The translations under genes were made by a program, and so were the position numbers. The notes under the pieces were generated by a model. The model was given only the letters and a program-made list of their open reading frames with translations. It was not told the origin of the DNA and did not search any database. A stretch of 64,000 nucleotides of DNA, from positions 1 to 64,000 of the forward strand of contig JBBTED010000067.1 in assembly GCA_038042445.1 (NCBI GenBank), in the 5' to 3' direction. Positions 2,364-51,208 of this stretch are shown here, piece by piece. The number at the start of each line of letters is the position of its first letter. Position 1 is the stretch's first letter. The DNA is from Candidatus Firestoneibacteriota bacterium. Its GTDB lineage: Bacteria; Oederibacteriota; D2-FULL-39-29; JBBTED01.

Positions 2364-3344
2364 ATGAGTCCGAATATTGCCTATGCTGTAGGTGTGGATT
2401 TTGGTGGTACAAATATAGTAGCAGGTATAGTAAATTCTAAAGGTAAAGTTGTTGCACGTATAAAAATACCTACTTGTGCAAAAGAAGGAAAAGCAAAAGT
2501 TCTTAATCGTATTTCACTTGCAATAAAAGAAGTTCTTGAAAAATTCAAAGGTGGCATAGGAAAAATAAAAGGAATAGGTATAGGTTCGCCTGGGCTTATA
2601 GATCACATTAGAGGGATAGTAAATGTTCCTCCAAATCTTCCAGGGTGGAAACATGTTAATTTAAAAAAATATTTAGAGGCAAAATTTCACAAACCTGTTT
2701 TTGTTGCAAACGATGTAAATGCAACTGCTTTGGGAGAAAGTGAATTTGGTGCTGGAAAAGGAGTTAAAAATCTAATTTGTATAACATTAGGAACAGGAGT
2801 TGGTGGTGCTATAATAATAAATGGTAAGCTTTATGTTGGAAGCCATCAATTTGCAGGTGAAATAGGTCATATGACAGTAGAAAGACACGGTTTAAGATGT
2901 AACTGTGGTAATATAGGGTGTATGGAAAGATATGTGGGATGTGGTTTTATCGCGGAAAGGGCAATGGCTGAGATAAAAAAAGGAGTGCAAACTAAAATTA
3001 CAGAACTTGTTGATGGAGATTTGGATAAAATAACGCCAAAAATTCTAACTGATGCTGCAAAATTGGGAGATAAATTGGCATTAAAAATATGGAATGAAAC
3101 AGGAGAATATCTTGGCATAACTCTTGCCAGTGTTGTGAACTTTTTAGACCCTGAGATGATAATAGTGGGTGGTGGAGTAGCACAAGCAGGCAAATATATA
3201 TTTGAGCCAACTAAAAGAGAAATTAGAAAACGCGCATATAAGTTTTTAACAAAAAGTCTAAAAATAGTGCCAGCTAAACTTGGAGAAGATGCAGGTGTTA
3301 TTGGTTCGGCGACATTAGTGTTAAAAAATAAGGGGGCGATGTAA
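2364..3344 (+). CDS. ROK family sugar kinase (glucokinase-like)
   Basis: GVDFGGT, NDVNATALGE, TLGTGVGG, GEIGH and CxCGxxGC motifs. Confidence 0.92.
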   Translation: MSPNIAYAVGVDFGGTNIVAGIVNSKGKVVARIKIPTCAKEGKAKVLNRISLAIKEVLEKFKGGIGKIKGIGIGSPGLIDHIRGIVNVPPNLPGWKHVNLKKYLEAKFHKPVFVANDVNATALGESEFGAGKGVKNLICITLGTGVGGAIIINGKLYVGSHQFAGEIGHMTVERHGLRCNCGNIGCMERYVGCGFIAERAMAEIKKGVQTKITELVDGDLDKITPKILTDAAKLGDKLALKIWNETGEYLGITLASVVNFLDPEMIIVGGGVAQAGKYIFEPTKREIRKRAYKFLTKSLKIVPAKLGEDAGVIGSATLVLKNKGAM

Positions 3345-26097: not shown

Positions 26098-28789
26098 TAA
26101 ATTTTTTAAAATTATTTTTATAGTAATAGTTTATAGTATAATTAACGATTTTACATATACTTATGCTGTAACTTATACATTAGACAGCACAGGAAATGTT
26201 GGAGGGTATAACTCTATAGCCATAGACAGTAATAACAAAGTTCATATTGGTTATTATGATGTTACAAATGGAGATTTAAAATACGCAACGAATATATCTG
26301 GTTCATGGGTAACATCTACTTTGGATAGTTCAGGAACTGTTGGATGGTGGAGCTCTATAGCCATAGACAGTAATAACAAAGTTCATATTGGTTATTATGA
26401 TGCTACAAATGGAGATTTAAAATACGCAACGAATATATCTGGTTCTTGGGTAACATCTACTTTGGATAGTTCAGGAACTGTTGGATGGTATAACTCTATA
26501 GCCATAGACAGTAATAACAAAGTTCATATTAGTTATATGGATTATACAAATGCAGATTTAAAATACGCAACAAATACATCTGGTTCTTGGGTATATACAA
26601 CATTAGATGATATTGGAAGTAGTTTAGATGGTTCTCAAAACCGTACTTCAATCACAATAGATAGTAATAATAAAGTCCATATTAGTTATGCTATGGGTTT
26701 TGGTGGTAATTTAAAATATGCAACAAATACATCAGGTAGTTGGGTGTGTATATCATTAGGTATAGGATTTACTTCTTCAATAGCCATAGACAATAATAAT
26801 AAAGTTTATATAAGTTATAATGGGACAGATTTAAGATATGGTACAAACGCATCTGGTAGTTGGGTGACATCAACATTAGATAGTGCGTTCTCAAATTCTT
26901 TCATAGCGATAGATAACAATAACAAGATTCATATAAGTTGTTTTGATAGTACAAATGCAGATTTAAAATATGTTACAAATGCTGGTAATACAGCACCAAC
27001 ATTATCATGGACAGGCGAGGCAAATTATACTTCAGATGGAATAAATCCAGAAATAGGAAACACAAGTTCAACATTTATATACAGGATTAAATATACCGAT
27101 ACTGATAATGATGCACCGGCGAGTGGGTATCCAAAGGTGCATATTAAGAAAGCAGGAGTTGAAATAAGCGGTAGTCCATTTACAATGAGTTATGTAAGTG
27201 GAAGTTATAGCACAGGAGCAATTTATACATATTCTAAAACATTAAGTTCTTTGGGAACTGACTACACATATTATTTTGAAGCGCAGGATGTGTGGAATGA
27301 AGTAGCAACAGGCACGCCAACAATCGCTGTTGATTCTCCTGATGTCAATAATGCTCCTGCATTATCTTGGACCGGTGAGACAAATTATGTATCTGACGGG
27401 TTAGATCCGCATACAGGAAATACAGCAATAACATTTACATACAGAGTGAAGTATACGGATGCTGATGCTTTAGCAAGTGGATATCCAAAAGTTCATATTA
27501 AAAAAGCAGGAAGTGAAATATCTGGTAGTCCATTCACAATGACTTATGTAAGTGGAACATATTCAGGCGGAGCGATTTACACTTATTCTAAAATACTTTC
27601 TACCGTTGGAATTGACTATACATATTATTTTGAGGCACAGGATGTATATAACGAAGTAGCAACTGGAATACCAACAACATCAGTAGATGCTCCTGATGTT
27701 TCTGCTATTCCTCTTATTTCTCCAAATACAGCACCCATTTTTTCCTGGACAGGTGAAACAAATTATACGGCTAATGGGATTTATCCTACTTTAGGAAATG
27801 CGAGTACTACTTTTGTTTTTAGGGTGAAATATACGGATGCAGATAATGATGCTCCTGCATCAGGATATCCTAAATTGTATATTAAAAAAGGTGGTGTAGA
27901 AATTTCTGGTAGTCCGTTTGCTATGGTGACAGTAGATAGTAGTTTGTATTCAGCAGGTCCAATTTATACTTATTCTACGGTTTTAACTAAATCAGGTGCT
28001 GATTATACTTATTATTTTGAGGCGAAAGATGTATTAAATGGTCTTGCAACAGGAATACCTACAAATCCTTTTGATGCACCTGATGTTAATGTAATTCAGG
28101 CAAATCAAGATACCAATATAGTAAGTGAAGACGGAACCAGTATTGATATTCCAAAGGATACACTAAATCCAGGAGTTGCAATTAACATCACTATTCCTTC
28201 TGTTATTCCTGAAGGAGAAGTCCAAAATGCAGGATATTCAGTTAAGCAGACAAATATAACAAGAGAAATAACTACATCAGATGGGAGTAAAAATTTTAAT
28301 AAGGAAATAAAAATATCTATTCCATTTAAAGATTCTGATGTTGCTGGAATAAATAAACAAAACCTGAAATTATTCTATTATTCTGAAGAAAGGAAAATGT
28401 GGATTTTAATTCCATCTGCTGTAGTTGATACTAATAAAAATACAATTTCTATATTAGTTACACATTTGACAATTTTTAGGATAATGGCACTTGAGCCAAC
28501 ATCAGCAGTATTAGTTTTATATAACAATTTGTTTGACCCTGCAAATAATGAAAAATTATATGTTCGTTATGATATTGTGCAAGAAGTAGATGTTACAGTT
28601 ACTGTGTATAGCATCAAGGGGCAAAAGATAAAAGAATTATTTAATGGTAGAAAAACTGCTGGTAGTTACACTGATTTAACCTGGGATGGCAAGAATGAAG
28701 ATGGAGAGGTTGTAGCAAGTGGTATTTATGTTGTGTATATTTCTGCAGGGGATTTTAGAGATAAGAAAAAAGTGGTGGTGGTGAAATGA
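26084..28789 (+). CDS. Large secreted repeat protein: beta-propeller-like repeats, three repeated ~120-aa domains, ZU5-like region, C-terminal FlgD-Ig/T9SS-like sorting domain
   Basis: Signal peptide; SIAIDSNNKVHI..Y.....DLKYATN repeats; 3x AP.LSWTGE.NY...YTYYFEA.D; C-terminus VYSIKGQKIKEL...WDGKNEDGEVVASGIY...KKVVVVK. Confidence 0.85.
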   Translation: MIKLNKFFKIIFIVIVYSIINDFTYTYAVTYTLDSTGNVGGYNSIAIDSNNKVHIGYYDVTNGDLKYATNISGSWVTSTLDSSGTVGWWSSIAIDSNNKVHIGYYDATNGDLKYATNISGSWVTSTLDSSGTVGWYNSIAIDSNNKVHISYMDYTNADLKYATNTSGSWVYTTLDDIGSSLDGSQNRTSITIDSNNKVHISYAMGFGGNLKYATNTSGSWVCISLGIGFTSSIAIDNNNKVYISYNGTDLRYGTNASGSWVTSTLDSAFSNSFIAIDNNNKIHISCFDSTNADLKYVTNAGNTAPTLSWTGEANYTSDGINPEIGNTSSTFIYRIKYTDTDNDAPASGYPKVHIKKAGVEISGSPFTMSYVSGSYSTGAIYTYSKTLSSLGTDYTYYFEAQDVWNEVATGTPTIAVDSPDVNNAPALSWTGETNYVSDGLDPHTGNTAITFTYRVKYTDADALASGYPKVHIKKAGSEISGSPFTMTYVSGTYSGGAIYTYSKILSTVGIDYTYYFEAQDVYNEVATGIPTTSVDAPDVSAIPLISPNTAPIFSWTGETNYTANGIYPTLGNASTTFVFRVKYTDADNDAPASGYPKLYIKKGGVEISGSPFAMVTVDSSLYSAGPIYTYSTVLTKSGADYTYYFEAKDVLNGLATGIPTNPFDAPDVNVIQANQDTNIVSEDGTSIDIPKDTLNPGVAINITIPSVIPEGEVQNAGYSVKQTNITREITTSDGSKNFNKEIKISIPFKDSDVAGINKQNLKLFYYSEERKMWILIPSAVVDTNKNTISILVTHLTIFRIMALEPTSAVLVLYNNLFDPANNEKLYVRYDIVQEVDVTVTVYSIKGQKIKELFNGRKTAGSYTDLTWDGKNEDGEVVASGIYVVYISAGDFRDKKKVVVVK
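26177..26975 (+). repeat. 141-bp (47-aa) intragenic tandem repeat; 3 near-identical and about 3 diverged copies
   Basis: Units start at 26177, 26318, 26459 and 26600. Confidence 0.9.
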
Positions 28790-31755
28790 GAGAAAAATGG
28801 ATTCCCGCTTTCGCGGGAATGACAGAATGTAGTGGAAATTCTCGCAGGCTAAAGCCTGCGGCTACAACTACATTGTTTGTAATGATGATTTTTATTTTGC
28901 CTGTTTTGTGTAATGCAGGGGTGGGAACAACTGGGGGTGTGTTTCTTGAGGATTCTGTAGGTGCAAGACCTTATGGTATGGGTTCTGCATTTTCTGCTAT
29001 TGCTGATGATGCAAATAGTATCTATTCAAATCCTGCTGGTTTTCATTATCTTGCCTATCCTGAAATAACAACAATGTATAATAAAGCATTGATGGATACT
29101 TCATTAAGTTATATTGGGTATATTCATCCTTATGAAAATATCGGAACTTTTTCCGGGTCATTTTTATTATTTGATGGTGGAGATATAGAGCTGAATTATT
29201 TAGATAGCACAAGTGAAAAAGTGAAGGCAGGCCAGGATTGGGCCGTAACTTTAGGATATGGCAGATCTATAGGGAATTCAGAAATATTTTTTGGTGGGGC
29301 TAATATAAAATTGGTACGTAGCACATTGGTAAATAAATATTCTGCAATAGCAATAGCGATGGATGCAGGATTGTTGTATCGCACAATTGATAATAAGCTT
29401 TCAATTAGTTTAGCATTTCAAAATTTAGGTACGAAGTTGAAATATAAAAATATAGGTGATTCTCTTCCTTTTACTTCTAAATTTGGAGTTGCCTATAGAA
29501 TTTTAGAGCTTGAAGGACATTCAGTATTACTTGCAGGAGATTTTTCTCTTAATTTTGTAAAGAAAAATATTGGAGTTGAATATTGGGTAATGCAAATGTT
29601 CGCATTAAGACTTGGTGCAAAATTGGGATATAATCCAAATAGCTATACTATGGGTTTCGGGATAAATGTTTTTTCTGATACAAAATTGGATTATGGATAT
29701 TCTCCAATGATAGATGAAACAACGCATAGGATTTCGTTATCATTTAAGTTTGGTTCACAGGATAAAATTACACTTGCTGATAAATACGAAGAAAAAGGAA
29801 TGTATGCACGTGCGCAATATATCCGCAATCCAGATGATTATATGTACGCAAAGGCAAATACAATAAAAGAAAAAGATGGATTTATACCTATTATAACATC
29901 AATAGAGCCAAAGAAAGCAGGTCCGGGAACGGAAATTAAAATATTCGGAGAAAAATTTGGGAAATATAGCAATGTAACAATAGGAGATGTTTTTGCAGAG
30001 GTTATAAAATCAGAAGAAAAAAGAATAATAGCGAAAGTGCCGAATATAAAAGCTGGAGAATCAGAAGTAGTTGTGCAGACAGACAAAGGGGTTTCACTTT
30101 CAAAAACATTATCAGTGATGCCATCAAAACCAGCAATGCTTGAAGTTTCAGAAATAACATTTAAAGATGAGAATCAAGATAATATTTTGGGAGCAGAGGA
30201 AACCGGAAACATAATAATAACAGTTAAAAATCAGAAGGGTGCTGGAGAGTCGTTTGGAGTGAAGGTTAAACCAGTGTGTACTTCAGCAAAGAATGATCTG
30301 TTTTTTGATAATGAAATAAATATAGGAAATATTGGTTCTGGAGAAGAGAGAAAAGTTGAAATTCCAGTTAAAGCTGGATTAGATTTAACAACAGGCAAAG
30401 CGAGTTTTAAATTGAGTTTTACTGAAGCGAATGAATATAATCCAGATCCAGTGAACATAACATTTGATACACATAAATTAGAGCCGCCTGATATAGAATT
30501 AGCGAAATTTGAGATAGACGATGGAATGTATCCATACAATCCGGAAAAATTAGCATCAGGAAATAACAATGGAATACTTGAACCCGGAGAACAAGTTGAA
30601 ATAAACGCAGTTATTGTAAACAAGGGAACAGGTCCAACAAAGAATGGAGTTGTAAAAGTTATTTGTTCTGATCCTAAAATCAATATTTCAAGTTTAAGTC
30701 AGAGTTTAGAGTTTGATTTAGGTAGTATAGAGCCGGAAAAATGGAAAGAAATAAAGTTTGCGATAGAAGTTAAAAAACAATATAAGGGTGAACAGAATCT
30801 GCCTGTAAAACTACAGTTCAGTGAAGCAAGAAAAATGTTTAACAAGGATTTGGCAATGAACATAGGATTAGGCAGGGTGTATGCAAAAACACAAGATGTT
30901 GTTATAAAAGGAAAATCGTTTGATATTGCTATTCCAACAATTACTTCTTTCGGAGATGATTTAATTAACATACCTGCTTATGCAACAACAGAAAAGAAGA
31001 ATGCTTATGCAGTAGTGGTCGGAATAGAAAAATACAGGGATGTGGTGTCAGCGGAATATGCGGCAAAGGACGCACAGTCAATAAGAGATTATTTAATTAG
31101 CGCAATGAAATTTAAAGAAGAGAATATTAGATTTGCTCTAAACGAAAGAGCAAGCAGGAATGATTTAATCAGATATTTCAATGTGGAGTTAAAGAACAAT
31201 GTTGAAAAGGATTCTTTGGTGTTTGTATATTATTCCGGGCATGGTGCCCCGGATGCAACAACAGGCGATACATACATCGTTCCTTATGACGGAGACCCGA
31301 ATACAATAAAAGACAGCGGGTATTCGTTAAAGCAGTTGTATGAGGTATTAAGCAAACTACCAACTAATAAAATATTGGTTGTGATAGACGCGTGTTTCAG
31401 CGGTGCAGGCGGAACAAGAACGCTTTTAGCAAAAGGAGCAAGACCATTAGTAGTGAGTAAGGATACAGATACCGGGAATGCGATAGCAATCACAGCAACA
31501 GGAGCAGGACAAATAAGCGGGACTTATGACGAGAAACAACACGGGTTATTTACATATTATTTTTTGAAAGGTATTCAGGGTGAAGCGGATATAAACAAAG
31601 ACAAGGAAATAATGTTAAGCGAGTTGTATGGATATTTAAAGCCAGAGGTTATAAGGAAAGCAAGAAAAGACAACAGGGACCAGGAACCGCAGATATTGCC
31701 ATCAGTTAATCAGATAGGTGAGTTTGAAAAATTACCATTAGCAATATTAAAATGA
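28786..31755 (+). CDS. PorV/PorQ-like (UPF0164) beta-barrel fused to IPT/TIG, Ig-like domains and a caspase-family (C14) peptidase
   Basis: GARPYGMGSAFSAIADDANSIYSNPAG and THRISLSFKFG bracket the barrel; ITSIEPKKAGPGTEIKIFGEKFG (IPT); AVVVGIEKY, YYSGHG, IDACFSG, HGLFTYYFLKG (caspase fold, His/Cys dyad intact). Confidence 0.88.
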   Translation: MREKWIPAFAGMTECSGNSRRLKPAATTTLFVMMIFILPVLCNAGVGTTGGVFLEDSVGARPYGMGSAFSAIADDANSIYSNPAGFHYLAYPEITTMYNKALMDTSLSYIGYIHPYENIGTFSGSFLLFDGGDIELNYLDSTSEKVKAGQDWAVTLGYGRSIGNSEIFFGGANIKLVRSTLVNKYSAIAIAMDAGLLYRTIDNKLSISLAFQNLGTKLKYKNIGDSLPFTSKFGVAYRILELEGHSVLLAGDFSLNFVKKNIGVEYWVMQMFALRLGAKLGYNPNSYTMGFGINVFSDTKLDYGYSPMIDETTHRISLSFKFGSQDKITLADKYEEKGMYARAQYIRNPDDYMYAKANTIKEKDGFIPIITSIEPKKAGPGTEIKIFGEKFGKYSNVTIGDVFAEVIKSEEKRIIAKVPNIKAGESEVVVQTDKGVSLSKTLSVMPSKPAMLEVSEITFKDENQDNILGAEETGNIIITVKNQKGAGESFGVKVKPVCTSAKNDLFFDNEINIGNIGSGEERKVEIPVKAGLDLTTGKASFKLSFTEANEYNPDPVNITFDTHKLEPPDIELAKFEIDDGMYPYNPEKLASGNNNGILEPGEQVEINAVIVNKGTGPTKNGVVKVICSDPKINISSLSQSLEFDLGSIEPEKWKEIKFAIEVKKQYKGEQNLPVKLQFSEARKMFNKDLAMNIGLGRVYAKTQDVVIKGKSFDIAIPTITSFGDDLINIPAYATTEKKNAYAVVVGIEKYRDVVSAEYAAKDAQSIRDYLISAMKFKEENIRFALNERASRNDLIRYFNVELKNNVEKDSLVFVYYSGHGAPDATTGDTYIVPYDGDPNTIKDSGYSLKQLYEVLSKLPTNKILVVIDACFSGAGGTRTLLAKGARPLVVSKDTDTGNAIAITATGAGQISGTYDEKQHGLFTYYFLKGIQGEADINKDKEIMLSELYGYLKPEVIRKARKDNRDQEPQILPSVNQIGEFEKLPLAILK

Positions 31756-32849
31756 GAAATAAAACGGTTTTGTCATTGCGAGTGAAACGAAGTAATCTTG
31801 GGATTTATCTAGTATTTTTTCTTGTTGTTGTTTTTTGTGGGTGTGCTACGACACCAAAGTCAAAACCGGATTTAAAAGATAAATCCGATAAACTTTTTCA
31901 GGAACTTGGAAAAGAAGAAACTCCGGATATTCAACAGAATAAAGAAATGAAACAGATGGAAAAGGAGTTGGATAAAACGCCCAATAAATCAGACCAAACA
32001 GTAGAACAAGCGTCTCGCTTGTCAGAACAACAGCCATCAATGGTAGGACAGCCGTCTCGGCTGTCAGAAGAAATTTCTTTTGAAGAAACAGGTGAAGGGT
32101 TCGCGTCAAAATACGAACGGAGAATAGAAGCAGAAAAACGTGCAGAGGAGAATGCTTTATCAAAAGCGCTAAAGAAAATAGGCACAGATGTTTTTGACAG
32201 TTTCAGCGATGCAATGGCTCAATCCGGAAAAACACAGTATCAGTTCGTTGCGAAATGTCTTTATATCGGCACAAGCGGATTAGTGTCTTATGAAAGAACT
32301 GGAGAGCCGATTTTTACAGAAGAGACAAATGGAACAAAGTGCGTTCTTAAAATAAAAGGCACGGTTTATTCAAAAGGTAAGCCAGACCCTTCTTATGGGG
32401 TTAAAATAGATAAGAATTCCGGGATGGATAAACTGATTTATAATTCCGGGGATGAAGTCCAACTAAAATTTTCTGTTACAAAGGATTCACATATAACTAT
32501 TTTAAATATTGATGAGGAAAAGAACGTTTATCTGATTTATCCAAATAAGTTTGTTAAGGGAAATATACTGAAAGCAGGAGAAAGTTTTGAAATACCGGGT
32601 AACTTGGGAATAAAAATGCAGGCAGTATTACAGGAAGGAAAGAGCGAAACAGTTGAATTACTATACATAATCGCAACAAAAACCAATTCGTTGTTTTTAT
32701 CTGAGGATAGCAAAGAGATTCTTTTATCAACAGATTACACATTGTTTTCAATCGGAGAATTTAAAAGGGCTATGGAACGGATTGGAAAACTTAATCGTGA
32801 TGAGTGGACAATGATTGTTTTGCCATATACGATAGTAAAAGGTAAATAG
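31752..32849 (+). CDS. Lipoprotein with C-terminal DUF4384-like domain
   Basis: Lipobox FCGC; YNSGDEVQLKFSVTKDSHITILNID...YLIYPN pattern. Confidence 0.7.
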   Translation: MRNKTVLSLRVKRSNLGIYLVFFLVVVFCGCATTPKSKPDLKDKSDKLFQELGKEETPDIQQNKEMKQMEKELDKTPNKSDQTVEQASRLSEQQPSMVGQPSRLSEEISFEETGEGFASKYERRIEAEKRAEENALSKALKKIGTDVFDSFSDAMAQSGKTQYQFVAKCLYIGTSGLVSYERTGEPIFTEETNGTKCVLKIKGTVYSKGKPDPSYGVKIDKNSGMDKLIYNSGDEVQLKFSVTKDSHITILNIDEEKNVYLIYPNKFVKGNILKAGESFEIPGNLGIKMQAVLQEGKSETVELLYIIATKTNSLFLSEDSKEILLSTDYTLFSIGEFKRAMERIGKLNRDEWTMIVLPYTIVKGK

Positions 32850-32861
32850 TTTATAGAATAT

Positions 32862-32950
32862 GTTATGCTGAATTCATTTCAGCATCTGTAGGGGTGGATT
32901 TATCCGACCAGATATTGTAGTTGTTTTGTAGTTGCCGACTTTGGTTGGCA
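32862..32950. repeat. Cluster of three different REP units
   Basis: gttatgctgaattcatttcagcatct, gtaggggtggatttatccgacc, gtagttgccgactttggttggca. Confidence 0.7.
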
Positions 32951-32965
32951 AAGGAGGAAAAGAAA

Positions 32966-33523
32966 ATGGGAAAAGGTAATGTAGTCGCTCAATTTATTGA
33001 GCATAAGGTAGTTGCAAAGATTGGTTTGCTGATTGTTTTAGCAGTATTTGTTATAGTTGGTTGTGCATCAATGAAACCAATGTGGGTGGATAAAGGAAGT
33101 GCTGCGTTTGAGAAAGGCAAAGAAAAGGTGTTTTATGGTGTTGGCACAGCGAGTGCTGAAATTAAAGACAAAGCATTAAGAATAGAAACAGCGGATAACA
33201 GAGCAAGAGCGAGTTTACAGAAGATATTTGACACATATACAGCGTATTTAATGAAGGATTATCAGGGACAGGACGGAGTAGTTGTTGAAAGGGCTGTAAA
33301 AACATTTGCTGCTGGGAATTTATCTGGAGTTGAAATAACAGACCATTTTACTGAAAGCGATGGCACAATATATTCTTTAGCGAAACTTGATTTAGAGACA
33401 TTCAAGCAGGCAATGGAAATGGCAAAGGAAGTTAGTACTATAGCAAAGGAACATTTGCAAAAGAAAGCAGATGTTATGTTCTCTGAATTAGAAAAAGAAG
33501 AAGAAAAAAGAGGAGCAAAGTAA
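32966..33523 (+). CDS. LPP20-like lipoprotein
   Basis: AAGGAGG RBS before ATG 32966, lipobox IVGC, KPMWV..G...FYGVG.A....TADNRARA. Confidence 0.75.
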   Translation: MGKGNVVAQFIEHKVVAKIGLLIVLAVFVIVGCASMKPMWVDKGSAAFEKGKEKVFYGVGTASAEIKDKALRIETADNRARASLQKIFDTYTAYLMKDYQGQDGVVVERAVKTFAAGNLSGVEITDHFTESDGTIYSLAKLDLETFKQAMEMAKEVSTIAKEHLQKKADVMFSELEKEEEKRGAK

Positions 33524-33565
33524 ACAAAAATTTAACTACTGAATATTCCCAAATTCTTAACAAAA

Positions 33566-33593
33566 GTAGGGAACAGGATTATCTGTTCCCTAC
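33566..33593. repeat. GTAGGGAACAG...CTGTTCCCTAC palindrome
   Basis: Perfect 11-bp arms with GTAG/CTAC ends; may also act as a terminator. Confidence 0.7.
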
Positions 33594-33777
33594 AAACCAA
33601 AATGTAACAAATCAGTATTCCGTCATTCACTGACCCATTGCAAGGTTGATTTGAATTGTATTTCACTTAAATTTTTTGTAATATGTTTTATAATATATGG
33701 TCTGGTGGAAAAAATATCAACTATAAGGGAAAGAATTATGCTGTGTCTTTAAAACATACAGCATAAGGGAAAAAATT

Positions 33778-35031
33778 ATGGATAAAATAATAATAAAGGG
33801 TGGCAGAAGATTAAAAGGGGTAGTTACAATAAGTGGTTCTAAAAATGCAAGTTTGCCAATAATTGCAGCTAGTCTTTTGGCTAATTCAAATGTAACATTA
33901 GAAAATATTCCTCAGTTAAGAGATGTTACTACTATGATTAAGGTGATTACTGCATTGGGTGCGAGGGTGGAAATAAAAAGGCAGGTATTAAATATAAATC
34001 CTGAAGGGTTTAAATGTAAGGAAGCTCCATATCAGTTAGTAAGAACAATGAGGGCTTCTATATATGTGATGGGTCCTCTACTTGCAAAATTTGGATATGC
34101 AAAGGTATCTTTGCCAGGAGGTTGTGTGATTGGAGTAAGGCCTATAAATTTACATCTTAAAGGGTTTGAAAAATTAGGTGCAAAAGTTAAAATTGAGCAT
34201 GGATATGTTGAGGCAAAAGCTAAAAAACTTAAAGGTGCTGAAATTGATTTGGATTGTCCAAGTGTTGGTGCTACAGCAAATTTAATGATGGCAGCTACTT
34301 TAGCCCAAGGAAAAACTGTAATAAGAAATGCTGCAAAAGAACCGCATATAGTTGATTTGGGAAATTTTCTAAAAAAAATGGGAGCTAAAATTAAAGGATA
34401 TGGGACGGATTGCATAAGCATAACAGGTGTCCGGGAACTTTCCGGATGTATTCATGAAATAATTCCAGATTACATAGAAGCCGGAACTTTTATTACTTGT
34501 GCAGCAATAACAAAAGGTAATGTGATTTTAAATAAAGTACCTGTATCTGATTTGGAAACTGTAATATCAAAGTTTAAAGAAGCAGGTGTTAGTATAATAG
34601 AAGAGAGTCCGAATTCCTTACGTATTAAAATGTCAAAAAATATAAAGGCAATAGATATAAATACATCGCCACATCCTGGGTTTCCTACAGATATGCAGGC
34701 ACAGTGGATGGCGGTTATGAGTGTTGCAAATGGCACAAGTGTAATAACAGAAAGTATATGGGAAAATAGGTTTATGCATGTTGCTGAATTAAGAAGAATG
34801 GGAGCTGATATAACACTTGATGGAAACACTGCTATAATAAAAGGAGTGAAATCTTTAAGTAGTGCGCAAGTTATGGTTTCAGATTTAAGAGCCGGTGCTG
34901 CACTTGTAATAGCTGGCCTTACAGCAAAAGGAGAAACTGAAATTTCAAGAATCTATCATCTTGATAGAGGTTATGAAAAAATAGAGGAAAAGTTAGTAAG
35001 ATTAGGTGCAGATATTAAAAGGATAAAATAA
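33778..35031 (+). CDS. murA: UDP-N-acetylglucosamine 1-carboxyvinyltransferase
   Basis: SGSKNA, MRAS, LPGGCVIGVRP, PGFPTDMQ, HLDRGYE. Confidence 0.98.
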   Translation: MDKIIIKGGRRLKGVVTISGSKNASLPIIAASLLANSNVTLENIPQLRDVTTMIKVITALGARVEIKRQVLNINPEGFKCKEAPYQLVRTMRASIYVMGPLLAKFGYAKVSLPGGCVIGVRPINLHLKGFEKLGAKVKIEHGYVEAKAKKLKGAEIDLDCPSVGATANLMMAATLAQGKTVIRNAAKEPHIVDLGNFLKKMGAKIKGYGTDCISITGVRELSGCIHEIIPDYIEAGTFITCAAITKGNVILNKVPVSDLETVISKFKEAGVSIIEESPNSLRIKMSKNIKAIDINTSPHPGFPTDMQAQWMAVMSVANGTSVITESIWENRFMHVAELRRMGADITLDGNTAIIKGVKSLSSAQVMVSDLRAGAALVIAGLTAKGETEISRIYHLDRGYEKIEEKLVRLGADIKRIK

Positions 35032-35043
35032 GTAGTTAATAAA

Positions 35044-35412
35044 ATGATGAATCTAACAAAAGGTCAAATAGAAGCTCAGATTAGTGAAGCAATAATTAAG
35101 TTTGAGAAAGAATATATGGGTAGAGGTCCTGTTGAAACCAAAACATATATTATAAAAGATATAGTTTTTGTTCGGCTTAAAGGTGTTCTTACGCCTGCAG
35201 AAGAACAGTTGGCAAAAACTGTTGAAGGCGCAAATTTAATAAAAAGGACACGAGTTCAATTATTAGAGAGTGCCAGGTTTTTTTTAGAAAATATTATTTT
35301 GGATATTACAGCTTGTACAGTAAAAAGTCTCCATAGTGATATTAGTGTAAAAACTGGTGAGAGAATTATTATCTTTACTCTGGATAAAAATTTAGAAGAC
35401 AATTTTAATTGA
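35044..35412 (+). CDS. DUF2294 / MpsC family protein
   Basis: TKGQIEAQISEAIIKFEKEYMGRGP...LKGVLTPAE...SLHSDIS..TGERIIIFTL. Confidence 0.9.
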   Translation: MMNLTKGQIEAQISEAIIKFEKEYMGRGPVETKTYIIKDIVFVRLKGVLTPAEEQLAKTVEGANLIKRTRVQLLESARFFLENIILDITACTVKSLHSDISVKTGERIIIFTLDKNLEDNFN

Positions 35413-35437
35413 CGACAATTATTTTTTAGTATAAGAT
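35409..35437 (+). promoter_or_regulatory. sigma70-type promoter overlapping the DUF2294 stop codon
   Basis: TTGACG-N17-TAAGAT. Confidence 0.65.
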
Positions 35438-35452
35438 TCTTTAGGTTAATAA

Positions 35453-35553
35453 TTGGAAGATTAAGCAAAAACTAGTTAAATAGTAGTTGTTTGATAAGCC
35501 AACATTAAAACTTTCGAGTTTGTATATGGTGGAAAGTTAATGTTGGCTTTTTT
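35453..35553 (+). promoter_or_regulatory. Putative attenuator leader RNA (antiterminator overlapping an intrinsic terminator)
   Basis: Terminator AAGCCAACATTAA(35496-35508)/TTAATGTTGGCTT(35537-35549) plus T run. Competing stem TTGG/CCAA and TTAAGCAA/TTGTTTGA uses part of the terminator 5' arm. Confidence 0.7.
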
Positions 35554-35598
35554 ATTTGCAATGCTATTTAAATTAAGTATGTCAGAAAAACATAGTAT

Positions 35599-35781
35599 AT
35601 GATTATATTAAAAATACATTGTCCTGTTTTTAAGCACAAAATTCACTGTTCTCAACTTGAAGATACAGAGGCGTCAGAACTTTCTGAAGAAAAACGTTAT
35701 GAATTCTGTTTTAGTAAATGTCCTGTATGGAAAAAAGCACAAGAAAATGTCACAATACAGAGATTACCCACAGATAGATAA
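35599..35781 (+). CDS. Small Cys/His-containing hypothetical protein
   Basis: 60 aa, HCPVF..HC....CFSKCPVW; overlaps the carbonic anhydrase start by 35 nt; no clear RBS. Confidence 0.4.
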   Translation: MIILKIHCPVFKHKIHCSQLEDTEASELSEEKRYEFCFSKCPVWKKAQENVTIQRLPTDR

Positions 35782-36271
35782 TACTTCATACATCGATTCT
35801 ACAGCAGTAGTAATTGGTAAAGTAAAAATAGGTAGAAATGTTTACATTGGTCCAGGTGTTGTTATTAGAGTTGATGAAGCTAATAGTTCGGTTGTTATTC
35901 ATTCTAACTGTAATATTCAGGATAGAGTTGTAATTCATGCTTTAGAAGGAACGCATGTAGAGATAGGGGAGAACACATCTCTTTCTCATGGTTGTATAGT
36001 TCATGGTCCTTGTAAAATTGGTGATAGATGTTTTATTGGTTTTGGTGCGGTTATTTTTAATGCTAACTTAGGTAACGGAGTAATTGTTAAACACTTAGCA
36101 GTTGTAGAGGAAGTTAAAATTCCTTCTAAAAGAATAGTGCCTAATGGGGTTGTTATTGATTTGAAAACTGGAGTTAAAAATTTAGAAAATGTAAGTAGAA
36201 AATTAAAAATATTCGCTCAAAAAGTAGTTACTGCTAATTTGAAATTAGTAAAAAAATATAAAAATGTATAA
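35747..36271 (+). CDS. Gamma-class carbonic anhydrase
   Basis: Hexapeptide repeats, IRVDE, NIQDRVVIHA and LSHGCIVHG with all three metal-binding His. Confidence 0.88.
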   Translation: MSQYRDYPQIDNTSYIDSTAVVIGKVKIGRNVYIGPGVVIRVDEANSSVVIHSNCNIQDRVVIHALEGTHVEIGENTSLSHGCIVHGPCKIGDRCFIGFGAVIFNANLGNGVIVKHLAVVEEVKIPSKRIVPNGVVIDLKTGVKNLENVSRKLKIFAQKVVTANLKLVKKYKNV

Positions 36272-36842
36272 AGCAGTGTTTTTAGATAGAGATGGGACAA
36301 TAAATGAAGATGTGGGGGATTTTTGTTCTCCAAATAAACTTATTTTTATACCTGGTGCTATTGAGGCATTGAGGATTTTGCAGGAAAAATTTTTACTCTT
36401 TATTATTACAAATCAATCAGGAATTAGTAAGGGTGTTTTTACTGAAAAAGAATTTATACGATTTAATAAATATTTTAATAAACTTCTTAAAAAAGAAGGT
36501 GTTGTAATAAAAAAAATCTATTACTGTTCGCATATAAAAGAAGAGAAATGTATTTGTCGTAAGCCTAGTTCATATTTTTTAAAGCAGGCAGTACAAAATT
36601 ACAATATTGATTTGAGGAATTCTTATGTTATTGGGGATCATCCTCATGATATAGAAATGGGATATAATGTTGGAGTAAGTTCTATATATCTTTTGACTGG
36701 TCACGGTAAAAAACATAGACAAGATTTAATAATAAAACCGGATTTTATTGCTACTGATCTTTACAAAGCATCAATTTGGATTTTTGCAAAAAACAAGTTA
36801 AAAGTTGGGAAATATTGCAATTTTTTTGAGAATATGATATAA
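36264..36842 (+). CDS. gmhB: HAD-IIIA hydrolase, D-glycero-D-manno-heptose bisphosphate phosphatase-like
   Basis: FLDRDGTIN, ITNQSG, CxH...CxCRKP, IGD. Confidence 0.8.
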   Translation: MYKAVFLDRDGTINEDVGDFCSPNKLIFIPGAIEALRILQEKFLLFIITNQSGISKGVFTEKEFIRFNKYFNKLLKKEGVVIKKIYYCSHIKEEKCICRKPSSYFLKQAVQNYNIDLRNSYVIGDHPHDIEMGYNVGVSSIYLLTGHGKKHRQDLIIKPDFIATDLYKASIWIFAKNKLKVGKYCNFFENMI

Positions 36843-36880
36843 AAATTTTAATAAAGGTAATTAAAAAAGGAGGCAGTATA

Positions 36881-37738
36881 ATGGAAGAAAGAGATATTTA
36901 TGAGAGTATGAAGACAGTGCAGTCTGCAATGAAGAAGCCGGAGGTAAGGATGGCAGTAATTATCGGAGCAATTCTGATAGGTTTTTTGTTTTTTAGACCA
37001 TGGGTTCAGGTTGGTCCAGGTGAAAGAGGGGTTGTTCTTAATTTCGGTGCTGTTCAAAAGATTGTGCTTGGAGAAGGAATTCATTTCAGGATACCTGTAG
37101 TGCAGAAAGTTGCTTTTATGGATGTTAAGGTGCAGAAATCTTTAATAAATGCTGCTGCTTCATCGTCTAACCTTCAGGAAGTGAGTTCAGAGGTTGCGAT
37201 TAACTACCACATAATTCCGGATAAAGCAAATATTGTTTATCAATCCATCGGCATATACTTTCAAGAGCGAATCATAGATCCAGCAGTGCAAGAAGTGGTA
37301 AAGGCTGTGTCAGCCAAGTATACAGCAGAAGAGCTTATAACAAAGAGGGCATTGGTAAGCGAGGCAATGAGAGCAAATCTTGCTGAAAGACTTTTCCCGT
37401 ACAATATAGCAGTTGATGCATTTTCTATTGTCGGGTTCAGCTTCTCCAAAATATATTTGGAAGCTATTGAGTCAAAGCAGACAGCAGAACAACTTGCACT
37501 AAAGGCAAATAGAGATCTGGAGAGGATAAAGATAGAAGCAGAACAGAAAATTACGGCAGCCAGGGCAGAAGCTGAATCTCTGAGACTTCAAAGAGCAAAT
37601 ATTTCAACAGATCTTATAGAGTTGAGAAAAATAGAGGCAAACCTTAAGGCAATAGATAAATGGAACGGAATATTGCCACAGGTTACAGGTAGCGGGGCAA
37701 TACCATTTATTGGAGTAGGTGATATACAGGGAAAATAA
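36881..37738 (+). CDS. Prohibitin/SPFH family membrane protein
   Basis: N-terminal TM, GERGVVL, EGIHFRIP, AIESKQTAEQ, IDKWNG. Confidence 0.9.
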   Translation: MEERDIYESMKTVQSAMKKPEVRMAVIIGAILIGFLFFRPWVQVGPGERGVVLNFGAVQKIVLGEGIHFRIPVVQKVAFMDVKVQKSLINAAASSSNLQEVSSEVAINYHIIPDKANIVYQSIGIYFQERIIDPAVQEVVKAVSAKYTAEELITKRALVSEAMRANLAERLFPYNIAVDAFSIVGFSFSKIYLEAIESKQTAEQLALKANRDLERIKIEAEQKITAARAEAESLRLQRANISTDLIELRKIEANLKAIDKWNGILPQVTGSGAIPFIGVGDIQGK

Positions 37739-37768
37739 ACAAATAATCGTGTATGTGGAGAATTTCCT

Positions 37769-38026
37769 ATGATTAGATATGTTAGTTTTCTTATTATTGT
37801 GGGTATTGTTGGCGGTATTATAGCCAGAAGAAAAGGCCGCAATCCTGTAATTTGGTTTACGTTGTGTGCTCTTTTCCCTTTGCTTATTGTTGTTATTGCA
37901 TTTTTTCCGCCTCTGGTATCTAAAGGATATACCAAAAAGTGTTTTTATTGCGCAGAAATAATTAAAGAAGACGCAAGATTTTGCAAACACTGTGGCAAGG
38001 AGCAACCTATAGATATGGTCAGGTGA
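37769..38026 (+). CDS. Membrane protein with zinc ribbon
   Basis: 2 TM, IARRKGR, KKCFYCAEII...FCKHCG. Confidence 0.8.
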   Translation: MIRYVSFLIIVGIVGGIIARRKGRNPVIWFTLCALFPLLIVVIAFFPPLVSKGYTKKCFYCAEIIKEDARFCKHCGKEQPIDMVR

Positions 38027-38149
38027 AAGAATACAGACTATAGTTAAAAAATATGGTTAGGGTGTTTTCTAATAGATAATTCTAAATATAAATAATATCT
38101 AAAAATACGATTTGTGGAAACTTTATTTTTCTTGTGCTGTGAGTATCTT

Positions 38150-38200
38150 GTAGCGGCGAATGTGAATTCGCAAAATTCGCCGGCTTACATCGACCGCTAC
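38150..38200. repeat. GTAGCGG-type REP doublet
   Basis: gtagcgg...ccgctac ends; same ends at 57527-57582. Confidence 0.65.
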
Positions 38201-38235
38201 TATTTTATTCGTGTTAATTCTATCTGGAGCAAAAT

Positions 38236-39648
38236 ATGTGTAAAACAAAAATTATTTGTACCATAGGTCCTGCATCAGAAAAATCTGCTACAATAGAGAA
38301 AATGATAAAATCAGGTATGGATATTGCACGCCTTAATTTTTCACATGGTTCTTATGAACAACACAGGATATATTTCGATAATATACGTAAAATATCAAAT
38401 AAATTGAATAAGAATATAGGGGTCTTACAGGATTTACAAGGACCGAAAATACGTGTTTGCAAATTTGTTTCGGGAATAAAAAGTATAATTTTAAAACAAG
38501 GCGGAAAATTTATTTTAACTACAGAAAATTATCCTGAAAGTATGAATAAGGCAAGTGTGGATTATAAAAATCTACATAAATATCTTATTAAAGGTGATAG
38601 GGTTTTTCTTGATGATGGCAAAATAGAACTGTTAGTAAGGAAAGTTGTTAAAAGAAATATCGAGTGTGAAGTAATTGTTGGCGGTGAGTTATATGAACGT
38701 AAAGGAATTTCGTTGCCTGGTAAGTTCTTGCCACTGCCTGTAATTACTCGACAGGATATAAATGATTTGAATTTTGGTATAAGTCTTGGTGTGAATTATG
38801 TTGCTGTATCTTTTACAAGAAAAGCGGAGAATATTCTCCAAATTAAAAAATTACTTAAAAAAAATAACAATATTTTAATAATTGCTAAAATTGAAGATGC
38901 GGAGGGTATAAGTAATATAAATAGTATAATTGATGTTAGTGATGCTATAATGATTGCTCGTGGAGATATGGGTGTATGCTTAACAAGGGCAGAAGTTCCT
39001 ATAGTACAAAAAGAAATAATTAGAAAATGTCGTCTGGCAGGAAAGCCAGTAATAGTGGCAACACAAATGCTTGATTCGATGATAACAAATTTTCATCCTA
39101 CCCGGGCAGAAGTGAATGATGTTGCTAATAGTGTGTTTGATGGAGCAGATTGTTTAATGCTTTCAGCTGAAACATCTATAGGGAAATATCCAGTAGAAGT
39201 AGTACACGAAATGAGCATCATCATTAACACAGTAGAAAAGTCTGTCGATTATATAAAAGTTTTAACTTCAGAAGAATTTTATCCTTTAGAAAAAGGATTG
39301 ATTCAAGGTGTAGGAATAGCAATTGATAAACTTTCACAGGTTGGTGATGTGAAAGCAATAATTTGCTTAACTGAAACTGGCAATACTGCAAAAATAATTT
39401 CCCGGTATCGTCCGCAATTACCAATAATTGCAATTACAATAAACAGAGCAGTTGCAATGAAACTACTTTTTTATTGGGGATTAAAAGTTTTGGTTGGTAA
39501 AAAAGTGAAAGATGTGGAACAGAATTACAGGATGTTTATAAAGCAAATAAAAAAACAAGGGTTGATTGATAAAGGGGAGCGAGTAATTATAACAAGTGGA
39601 ATAAGAGAGAAACCATTTAATGCAGATATTCATATAGTAGAAGTTTGA
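38236..39648 (+). CDS. pyk: Pyruvate kinase
   Basis: TKIICTIGPAS, RLNFSHG, DLQGPKIR, IARGDMG, ATQMLDSM, PTRAEVND. Confidence 0.97.
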   Translation: MCKTKIICTIGPASEKSATIEKMIKSGMDIARLNFSHGSYEQHRIYFDNIRKISNKLNKNIGVLQDLQGPKIRVCKFVSGIKSIILKQGGKFILTTENYPESMNKASVDYKNLHKYLIKGDRVFLDDGKIELLVRKVVKRNIECEVIVGGELYERKGISLPGKFLPLPVITRQDINDLNFGISLGVNYVAVSFTRKAENILQIKKLLKKNNNILIIAKIEDAEGISNINSIIDVSDAIMIARGDMGVCLTRAEVPIVQKEIIRKCRLAGKPVIVATQMLDSMITNFHPTRAEVNDVANSVFDGADCLMLSAETSIGKYPVEVVHEMSIIINTVEKSVDYIKVLTSEEFYPLEKGLIQGVGIAIDKLSQVGDVKAIICLTETGNTAKIISRYRPQLPIIAITINRAVAMKLLFYWGLKVLVGKKVKDVEQNYRMFIKQIKKQGLIDKGERVIITSGIREKPFNADIHIVEV

Positions 39649-50911: not shown

Positions 50912-51208
50912 ATGGCAAAACAAATGTTAATTTATATACAGGAAGAACAAAAAAATATGCTTTCGGATTTTAGTAAGGTAACAAAAAAATCTGTATCTGA
51001 ACTTGTAAGGGAAGCAATTGATTCATTTTTAGAGAGGTATAAAAAGAAACCTGTTTCTCTTAGTGATGCTTTAAGAATTTCTTCAGGTGCATGGAAGGGT
51101 AGAGAAGATATTAAAGATACAGAAATGTATGTCCGAAAAATTAGAAAAGAATTTACTGAATCATTTGAAAAAAAATCAAATAGATATGCAAAGAAAATTT
51201 CTGCTTGA
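50912..51208 (+). CDS. RHH/CopG antitoxin (VapB-like)
   Basis: QMLIYI...SVSELVREAID; GAWKGRED; overlaps the PIN toxin. Confidence 0.8.
   Translation: MAKQMLIYIQEEQKNMLSDFSKVTKKSVSELVREAIDSFLERYKKKPVSLSDALRISSGAWKGREDIKDTEMYVRKIRKEFTESFEKKSNRYAKKISA

Follow-up and report, generated by a model that had tools for sequence, protein, structure and literature searches.

A conserved attenuator leader RNA beside DUF2294/MpsC genes is tied to inorganic-carbon metabolism in several uncultivated bacterial phyla

The window analysed here is a 64,000-nucleotide (nt) stretch of forward-strand DNA from a Candidatus Firestoneibacteriota bacterium (assembly GCA_038042445.1, contig JBBTED010000067.1, positions 1 to 64,000), in which a gene for a small protein of the DUF2294/MpsC family is followed by a non-coding stretch and then by a gene for a predicted gamma-class carbonic anhydrase (Table 1). 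A preliminary description of the locus, made from the letters alone, had placed a promoter, an intrinsic terminator and an alternative stem between the two genes and had proposed an antitermination system that responds to CO2 or bicarbonate. The genes and the listed elements all lie where that description had put them, and comparison with other genomes establishes that the leader RNA which they form is widespread in several uncultivated phyla and tied to inorganic-carbon metabolism.

Table 1 Features of the leader locus in the window, with examples of the second DUF2294 paralogue from other loci (MFE, minimum free energy structure).
Feature	Position	Strand	Remarks
murA	33778-35031	+	upstream neighbour of the DUF2294 gene
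A-type DUF2294/MpsC gene, 122 residues	35044-35412	+	Pfam PF10057; starts 12 nt past murA
Sigma-70-like promoter	35409-35437	+	-35 TTGACG 35409-35414, 17-nt spacer, -10 TAAGAT 35432-35437
Non-coding stretch, 334 nt		+	between the DUF2294 gene and the gamma-carbonic anhydrase gene
Whole leader RNA unit (antiterminator, terminator, U-run)	35452-35554	+	covariance model R1, 74.9 bits, E 1.1e-19
Antiterminator (sensor) hairpin	35455-35500	+	MFE of the 5′ part alone
Antiterminator P1	35455-6 with 35499-500	+	GG with CC
Antiterminator 3x3 purine loop	35457-9 opposite 35496-8	+	AAG opposite AAG
Antiterminator P1b	35460-2 with 35493-5	+	AUU with GAU
Antiterminator P2	35465-8 with 35487-90	+	GCAA with UUGU
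Antiterminator P3	35471-35484	+	variable hairpin
Intrinsic terminator	35496-35553	+	12-bp basal stem with CUUUC/GAAAG extension, then U6 (35548-35553)
AT-rich spacer, 192 nt	35555-35746	+	from the terminator to the first regulated gene
Cam/CcmM-type gamma-carbonic anhydrase gene (predicted), 174 residues	35747-36271	+	first regulated gene in the window
GmhB-like HAD-IIIA phosphatase gene	36264-36842	+	NCBIfam NF006506, 2.7e-44, 150.9 bits (below the cut-off of 178)
B paralogue of DUF2294 in other loci	L005:7892-8263; L014:7378-7731; L036:4470-4841		examples

The -35 hexamer of the window promoter overlaps the DUF2294 stop codon, and the RNA downstream of it can adopt two folds. In the alternative stem, UUGG (35453-35456) pairs with CCAA (35499-35502), followed by the AAG/AAG internal loop and then by AUUAAGCAA/UUGUUUGAU. 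In the terminator, AAGCCAACAUUA (35496-35507) is paired with UAAUGUUGGCUU (35538-35549) in a fold of -25.1 kcal/mol (z = -5.06) that none of 200 shuffles equals; a stable stem with a U6 tract that lies ahead of the regulated gene on the transcribed strand makes it an intrinsic (Rho-independent) terminator. A simple terminator scan missed the hairpin because its loop limit is 8 nt. The 5′ arm of the terminator reuses the AAGCC of the antiterminator, and the CC at 35499-35500 has GG 35455-6 as its partner in the 5′ fold and GG 35545-6 as its partner in the terminator, which is the arrangement of an attenuator.

The comparative sample comes from a profile scan of one genome per species, queried with an alignment (A1) of 26 DUF2294 relatives, which gave 303 confirmed places. 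The counts below rest on the best 80 of these, corresponding to 79 loci at 66-84% identity: by title 29 are from Omnitrophota, 25 from Planctomycetota (including Scalindua, Anammoxibacter and Brocadiaceae), 5 from Elusimicrobiota and 11 from six other labels, and 9 are metagenome-assembled genomes (MAGs) titled 'bacterium'; the window's own genome is not included. In the 200 nt past each DUF2294 stop the same element is visible in most loci. It starts with a TTGAC-N17-TAnAAT promoter and (U/C)GGAAGACU .. GCAAG, continues through a variable hairpin to GUUGC .. AGUAAGCCAACAUC, and closes with a long hairpin ending in GAUGUUGGCUUUUUU, beyond which follow a ribosome-binding site and a start codon.

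The covariance model R1, built from an alignment (A2) of 61 such copies, gives 90 matches of 50-106 bits over the 79 loci and the window, found in 75 of the 79 loci and in the window, and 29 of the 90 are absent from the 61-sequence seed. At a score of at least 50 bits no leader was found in L004, L038 or L074, and L064 ends inside its DUF2294 gene. Another 25 matches score 19.6-30.5 bits: 21 of them are terminator-only, mostly on the reverse strand of strong matches, one is a copy truncated where L063 ends, and the other three, in L002, L009 and L046, are weak but full-length. Over the 64-kb window R1 has a single strong match, that at 35452-35554; a second candidate at 50938-51032 (15.8 bits, E 0.013) lies inside a small open reading frame (ORF) starting at ATG 50913 and was judged to be a chance match.

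Conservation of the leader next to other DUF2294 genes, a check that had been set beforehand, is clearly borne out: in 72 of the 80 sources (loci and window) the RNA starts 32-284 nt (median 55) past the stop codon of the A-type gene, in four it lies elsewhere within 4 kb, and in three it is absent. A site of the form TTGA-N18-20-TAnnnT is found at most 90 nt upstream of 65 of the 90 copies, with the -10 element ending 7-37 nt, mostly 11-24 nt, before the start of the RNA model; 10 of the 25 copies that have no such promoter are second to fourth members of tandem arrays. Most units have their next start codon no more than about 50 nt beyond the RNA end. The promoter-like site upstream and the nearby start codon together indicate that the RNA is the 5′ leader of a transcript of its own and not merely the end of the upstream one. 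The promoter TTGACG-N17-TAAGAT named in the preliminary description is present at its site, but taken alone it does not rise above chance, as 20 promoter-like sites were found in 33000-38500 against 24.1 +/- 5.0 in shuffled sequences; it is the counterparts at the conserved position upstream of other RNA copies that lift it above chance.

A comparison with Rfam, likewise called for at the outset, assigned the leader to no family. For window positions 34900-35900, Rfam 15 at E <= 10 returned only sub-threshold chance matches to eukaryotic small nucleolar RNA (snoRNA) and microRNA models on the hairpin, the best being a snoRNA with E 0.21 and 25.4 bits (cut-off 50); at the gathering score only tRNAs were found in 16 loci, and at E <= 1 nothing was found on the leaders of six loci. 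The full-text literature searched likewise yielded no description of the leader RNA, of the function of DUF2294, or of DUF4914, a family that occurs behind the leader.

The conserved core of the RNA, GG(N)AGA(C/U) ... (G/A)UAAGCC, or GG-NAG-AYU ... RRU-AAG-CC when divided by its helices and loop, is almost the motif that had been proposed from the window. G4, G5, G8, C100 and C101 are kept in 89-90 of the 90 copies, and the unpaired positions are conserved as well (A7 in 84, G8 in 90, G87 in 88, A97 in 88, A98 in 85 and G99 in 84 copies), which identifies the core as a symmetric 3x3 purine loop flanked by two invariant G-C pairs on one side and by the covarying helix P1b on the other. The stems covary, as had also been anticipated. 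In a MAFFT alignment of 61 sequences the antiterminator is 93.7% paired and 13 of its 15 pairs have changes on both sides; none of 500 shuffles reaches any of these measures, and slid controls give 18-46% pairing. In the 90-copy alignment, which leans towards the R1 model and in which P1 is not part of that model, pairing is 92.8% and 14 of 15 pairs show compensatory double changes. In P1b, C-G is replaced by U-A in 8 copies. The base of the terminator is 96.6-96.7% paired, with compensatory changes in 6 of 10 pairs among the 61 sequences and in 7 of 10 among the 90. For the terminator as for the antiterminator, and in both alignments, none of 500 shuffles attained the observed values and the slid controls stayed far below them.

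As had been expected, a terminator always follows: when complete units are folded with ViennaRNA it is the MFE in 88 of the 90 copies, and the 5′ part taken alone forms the G5-C100 pair of P1 in 84 of 90. The terminator part reaches a median energy of -26.2 kcal/mol and the 5′ part one of -18.7 kcal/mol. Since the terminator is the stronger, the antiterminator cannot win unaided and termination should be the default, and read-through would need something that stabilises the base of the hairpin. Taken together, the leader is almost certainly a genuine conserved attenuator.

The genes behind the leader were obtained from ORFs called greedily, a crude procedure, and clustered by BLASTP, with one representative per cluster and some extra members scanned against Pfam; the labels of the remaining genes follow from their cluster. 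As tandem copies are merged, the 90 copies make up 80 units. The first co-directional gene encodes a GTP-dependent phosphoenolpyruvate (PEP) carboxykinase (PEPCK) in 36 of the 80 units, DUF4914 in 8, PurC in 7 and PurE in 2, and a carbonic anhydrase in 3 (gamma class in L048 and the window, beta class in one). PurK, an archaeal-type PEP carboxylase and a SulP transporter come first in one unit each; one further unit begins with oxaloacetate decarboxylase gamma, followed by beta and alpha, and another with a 90-residue protein of no assigned family followed by SulP. The remaining first genes, again in one unit each, encode an aminotransferase, cytochrome c′, a multihaem protein, an Fe-S protein with a NuoG-like protein, a 116-residue unknown with a TPR protein, a 230-residue unknown with NeuB, a PMT-like protein, DegT, a 591-residue unknown and a partial second DUF2294. 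Six of the 80 units lie at contig ends, and three have no co-directional ORF within 520 nt.

A typical operon consists of PEPCK, PurC, a second DUF2294 paralogue and then gamma-carbonic anhydrase or Sua5/TsaC, and further down such operons biotin carboxylase, PurE, isocitrate dehydrogenase, MFS transporters and aminotransferases are found. PEPCK, PEP carboxylase, PurE, PurK, TsaC/Sua5 and biotin carboxylase use or interconvert CO2 and bicarbonate, and so do oxaloacetate decarboxylase, isocitrate dehydrogenase, carbonic anhydrases and BicA-type SulP transporters. The preliminary description had expected carbonic anhydrase or DabAB/MpsAB genes downstream. The former are indeed present, the gamma class (cluster C3) behind the leader in 17 sources, the window among them, and the beta class in three loci, two of which have it after the RNA; neither the 79 loci nor the surroundings of the window gene showed any MpsA/DabB or MpsB/DabA gene, and the commonest targets are PEPCK, PurC, PurE and Sua5, which still fit, and even widen, a CO2/bicarbonate reading. 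The regulon reads as a list of bicarbonate-dependent reactions, and the signal is therefore a testable hypothesis; there is good reason to think that inorganic carbon is what defines the regulon.

In the window the start of the carbonic anhydrase gene was set at ATG 35747 from the N-termini of 16 relatives, the longest ORF starting at TTG 35657. The closest solved relatives of the product are CcmM (3kwd, 1.1e-30, residues 7-171) and Cam (1qrf, 3e-25, residues 7-172), and the histidines of its VIHAL and SHxxxVHGP motifs align with those of CcmM; these are presumably the zinc ligands, and the enzyme, a member of cluster C3, is predicted to be a Cam/CcmM-type gamma-class carbonic anhydrase. Its gene overlaps the start of the gmhB-like gene by 8 nt, and the two are probably co-transcribed. 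The spacer before it is longer than in most loci. An ORF of 60 codons at 35599-35781 in this spacer, which overlaps the start of the carbonic anhydrase gene and is rich in cysteine (HCPxxxxxxHC ... CxxxCP), has no Pfam or NCBIfam match; a tblastn search of the 79 loci gave no relative either (best E 0.72), and it is probably a chance ORF.

Two families in the PEPCK slot deserve separate mention. DUF4914, a protein of about 630 residues with no known function, occupies this position in L009, L033, L055, L066, L068, L072, L073 and L079, and is also encoded at L028:1980-3869; in a single BLASTP comparison (E 0.003) its GASGGGKSE region, located where PEPCK has its P-loop region, aligns with the latter, and the family may represent an unrecognised PEP-carboxykinase-like enzyme. 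At L078:4528-6303 a 591-residue protein without a Pfam family comes first after the leader and is followed by gamma-carbonic anhydrase and isocitrate dehydrogenase. Its only match is a weak one, to the ATP-PEPCK subfamily model NF006821 of NCBIfam (E 2.3e-4, 19.9 bits); it has no detectable similarity to DUF4914, and a sequence search of solved structures with either protein gave chance matches only (E 0.21-0.76). A further observation concerns L030:3405-4921 of an Omnitrophota MAG, where an AbiEi/AbiEii toxin-antitoxin pair stands at the 3′ end of a leader-linked PEPCK/gamma-carbonic anhydrase operon.

The window DUF2294 protein belongs to Pfam PF10057 (MpsC; E 5.9e-39, 133 bits against a cut-off of 23, residues 5-115 of 122); NCBIfam holds no model for it. 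Relatives number 2330 at E <= 1e-5, and among the matches listed (117 besides the window's own protein) identity is 77-89%, with named sources spanning several phyla that include Omnitrophota, Anammoxibacter and Latescibacterota. The protein is better conserved than its neighbours in the same loci, at 73.6 versus 66.2% identity for PurC, 73.0 versus 53.1% for gamma-carbonic anhydrase and 74.4 versus 33.4% for PEPCK, the PEPCK set in this comparison probably mixing two clades. The A-type gene is encoded upstream of the leader promoter, outside the regulated transcript; it often has a TGnTATAAT-like promoter element of its own, and by eye no leader RNA precedes it. A second copy, the B paralogue, lies inside the operon in 20 loci, usually after purC. 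It is 33-44% identical to the window protein and is devoid of the A-type motifs YMGRGP, RTR and KTGER (18 of the 20 were aligned); a feedback partner or a carbon-binding protein is a possible role for it. No fused forms of DUF2294 were found, which is weak evidence, and three longer proteins of 222-231 residues have no extra domain.

Structural comparison gives a lead only. The AlphaFold2 model of DUF2294 has a predicted local distance difference test score of 91, and its weak structural neighbours are YslB (3njc, E 0.011, template modelling score 0.44), followed by H-NOX and TRAPP Bet3/TPC6, which we take to be small-ligand-binding folds. A sequence search of solved structures with DUF2294 gave nothing at E <= 1, and the ESM Atlas provided no usable match and no model. 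The homodimer prediction scores 0.05 against a mark of 0.42 and weighs neither way.

In the mechanism that these data suggest, the promoter at the 3′ end of the DUF2294 gene would start the leader transcript, and the first ~50 nt would fold into a hairpin whose base combines two G-C pairs with a symmetric purine loop (GG-NAG / AAG-CC). With the polymerase advancing, the much stronger terminator would capture AAGCC and transcription would stop before the downstream genes. Read-through would require a factor that holds the hairpin base closed, most likely the A-type DUF2294 protein, an antiterminator that would bind the RNA under ligand control and in this way report inorganic-carbon status, and read-through would presumably take place when inorganic carbon is low; the output in the window would then be the Cam-type gamma-carbonic anhydrase and probably also GmhB. 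That DUF2294 is the trans factor appears moderately probable, and the whole reading, protein-dependent antitermination in which DUF2294 stabilises the antiterminator according to inorganic-carbon status, stands at about even chances.

The principle of a terminator that competes with a factor-stabilised antiterminator is already known; what is new is the RNA family, together with its candidate protein partner and the presumed signal. HutP of the Bacillus subtilis hut operon is also a small protein encoded directly upstream of a leader terminator, which senses its ligand and then binds the nascent RNA, preventing termination. DUF2294 resembles it in being a small stand-alone protein encoded at this very position, but matches only Pfam MpsC and not the HutP family, and its gene lies outside the regulated transcript, with a promoter between gene and RNA; moreover, whereas HutP binds spaced UAG triplets, the leader here forms a hairpin interrupted by an internal loop of purines, for which DUF2294 is a candidate binding partner. 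The likeness to the ribonucleic antiterminator (RAT) elements of BglG, SacY and LicT, which the preliminary description had drawn, holds for the logic: a looped antiterminator hairpin overlaps the 5′ arm of a stronger terminator by a few nucleotides and would be stabilised by a protein. It does not extend to the protein, as DUF2294 has neither CAT nor PRD domains (Pfam scans of the genes around the leader, 31752-37738, found none), nor to the genes, which here include carboxylation enzymes instead of sugar or phosphotransferase system genes. Among all proteins scanned from the window and the representatives of the loci, no CAT/PRD, HutP or ANTAR domain was found, and while ANTAR targets consist of two small hairpins with hexanucleotide loops, the covarying structure here is one hairpin with internal loops. 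Finally, transcriptional ON riboswitches for ions or very small ligands, such as the fluoride (crcB), guanidine, Na+ and Li+ classes, share with the leader a short conserved aptamer-like hairpin competing with an intrinsic terminator, tandem copies, and downstream genes that deal with one small inorganic species; in contrast to these, the leader matches no Rfam 15 family and is closely linked to a single protein gene, which lies upstream of the leader promoter.

Several observations weigh against the protein-dependent reading, and a number of them favour a stand-alone riboswitch, in which the RNA would itself bind a small ligand and so stabilise the antiterminator, with DUF2294 as a functionally related neighbour and not the sensor. 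Candidate ligands would be bicarbonate or a CO2 adduct, perhaps via a metal ion, or a metabolite that signals a carboxylation shortfall (PEP, oxaloacetate/aspartate or aminoimidazole ribonucleotide). The loop and junction nucleotides are highly conserved and P3 varies in length and sequence, which in architecture and conservation is the usual look of an aptamer, and complete units occur in tandem, two copies in 8 arrays and four in L042, an arrangement better known from riboswitches. RNA copies lie kilobases from the DUF2294 gene in L046, L070, L071, L042, L077 and L054, which fits a trans-acting protein and equally a stand-alone riboswitch. RNA binding by DUF2294 is a proposal from gene position and conservation, and a Foldseek search of the PDB with its predicted model found no matches at E <= 0.001, hence no known RNA-binding protein. 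All loci were moreover picked for encoding DUF2294, and the linkage of RNA and protein is thus examined in one direction only. On the other side stands the position of the gene: it is co-oriented and directly upstream of the RNA promoter in 72 of 80 sources, although the genes upstream of it and downstream of the RNA vary from locus to locus, which is the pattern of a regulator gene and not of a regulon member, and the family does have a member within the regulon, the separate B paralogue. The sensor hairpin is also small, closed by two invariant G-C pairs, and faces a terminator about 7 kcal/mol stronger, and searches with exact phrases found no published bicarbonate riboswitch. It is mainly because of the gene position that the protein-dependent reading is favoured; a stand-alone riboswitch appears unlikely, though it is the rival to be taken most seriously, and a riboswitch in which the RNA alone responds to bicarbonate is improbable.

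The switch itself also has soft spots. The two folds had been described as mutually exclusive, and the basal pairs of P1 and the 3′ AAG of the loop are indeed contested, but the full-length window fold contains both the inner hairpin and the terminator; the folds do exclude each other, though only to a small extent, because nothing beyond these nucleotides is shared. P1 is invariant apart from one sequence and its pairing is therefore hardly tested by covariation: a U-A replaces the G-C in one copy (taken to be L020, as read from its sequence) with the terminator arm uncompensated, a single event. As to the signal, PurC uses no CO2, although it consumes the product of the reversible PurE step, and the TPR proteins, NeuB, haem proteins, DegT aminotransferase and PMT-like protein among the targets, as well as GmhB and an SPFH protein in the window, have no obvious tie to inorganic carbon. 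A real switch could accordingly respond to purine or nucleotide status (PurC, PurE, PurK, GTP-PEPCK), or to the PEP/oxaloacetate/aspartate node, for which PEPCK, PEP carboxylase, oxaloacetate decarboxylase, aminotransferase, PurC and NeuB could be cited. PEPCK, DUF4914 and PurC do head 51 of the 80 units, and aminotransferases, NeuB and oxaloacetate decarboxylase are present; gamma- and beta-carbonic anhydrase, SulP, Sua5/TsaC, biotin carboxylase and isocitrate dehydrogenase, however, fit neither of these signals and all fit CO2/bicarbonate, so that even jointly the two alternatives have a rather low probability. The most ordinary account would make the hairpin the terminator of a murA-DUF2294 transcript, give the carbonic anhydrase gene its own promoter and dismiss the alternative stem as chance pairing in AT-rich DNA. 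The hairpin, 84 nt past the DUF2294 stop, would indeed end that transcript too, the window promoter does not stand out when taken alone, and 192 nt separate terminator and carbonic anhydrase start. This account is nonetheless contradicted by the comparative data and is extremely improbable: in 90 copies conservation and covariation mark the entire unit, the stretch 5′ of the terminator as well as the terminator itself, most units have a start codon shortly past the RNA end, copies without a preceding DUF2294 gene occur, and no promoter-like site was predicted on the + strand between 35437 and 36161.

The name of the family comes from Staphylococcus aureus, where mpsC is encoded next to the bicarbonate/CO2 system MpsAB and is separated from mpsAB by a weak terminator, and the mpsA transcript is 1.7-2.5-fold lower at 5% CO2 (PMC6689103). 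The same study reports that deletion of mpsC caused no growth defect in air and that mpsAB alone complemented an Escherichia coli carbonic anhydrase mutant (PMC6689103), so that the staphylococcal protein, a distant family member, is unneeded for inorganic-carbon supply there, which is a further point against the role proposed here for DUF2294. Outside staphylococci mpsC is described as not collocated with mpsAB (PMC6689103).

Some loci carry more than one copy of the leader. In an Anammoxibacter MAG (L042:3283-3779, - strand) the four units stand in a row, divergent from the DUF2294 gene and before the genes for the 230-residue unknown and a NeuB-family protein. More than one copy is also found in L005, L029, L034, L051, L056, L059, L070 and L077; L077 contains three RNA copies altogether, and the two in L070 form separate units. 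L070 also contains, at 3200-3271, a 70-nt hairpin that matches two microRNA precursor models on both strands (best E 4.2e-5, far below the gathering score) and is probably a long perfect inverted repeat. In the window itself, a 989-residue ORF and a 365-residue ORF with a DUF4384 domain (Pfam, E 1e-14) lie further upstream at 28786-32849, followed by a 200-residue ORF at 32921-33523 that belongs to no family.

The sensing of CO2 and bicarbonate is poorly understood in non-photosynthetic bacteria, and we know of no RNA-level sensor of inorganic carbon, nor was one found in the literature searched. It is tentatively proposed that DUF2294 (the MpsC/YbcI family) may be a CO2/bicarbonate-sensing RNA-binding protein and, with the leader, may form the first dedicated inorganic-carbon-responsive antitermination system, a claim that we put forward with some reserve. 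If true, the system would co-ordinate nearly every carboxylation-dependent step of the cell, from anaplerosis (PEPCK/PEP carboxylase), purine ring carboxylation and t6A synthesis to biotin carboxylase, carbonic anhydrases and bicarbonate transporters, and would operate in Omnitrophota, anammox Planctomycetota, Elusimicrobiota and other uncultivated phyla. Both partners, a short conserved RNA of about 60 nt of sensor plus terminator and a protein of 122 residues, can be made and tested directly. Beyond the switch, DUF4914 and the 591-residue protein in the PEPCK slot point to unrecognised PEP-carboxykinase-like enzymes. The findings suggest a likely role for the large DUF2294/MpsC/YbcI family, which hitherto had no assigned function, and offer a regulatory handle in phyla so far not grown, such as Omnitrophota and the anammox bacteria.

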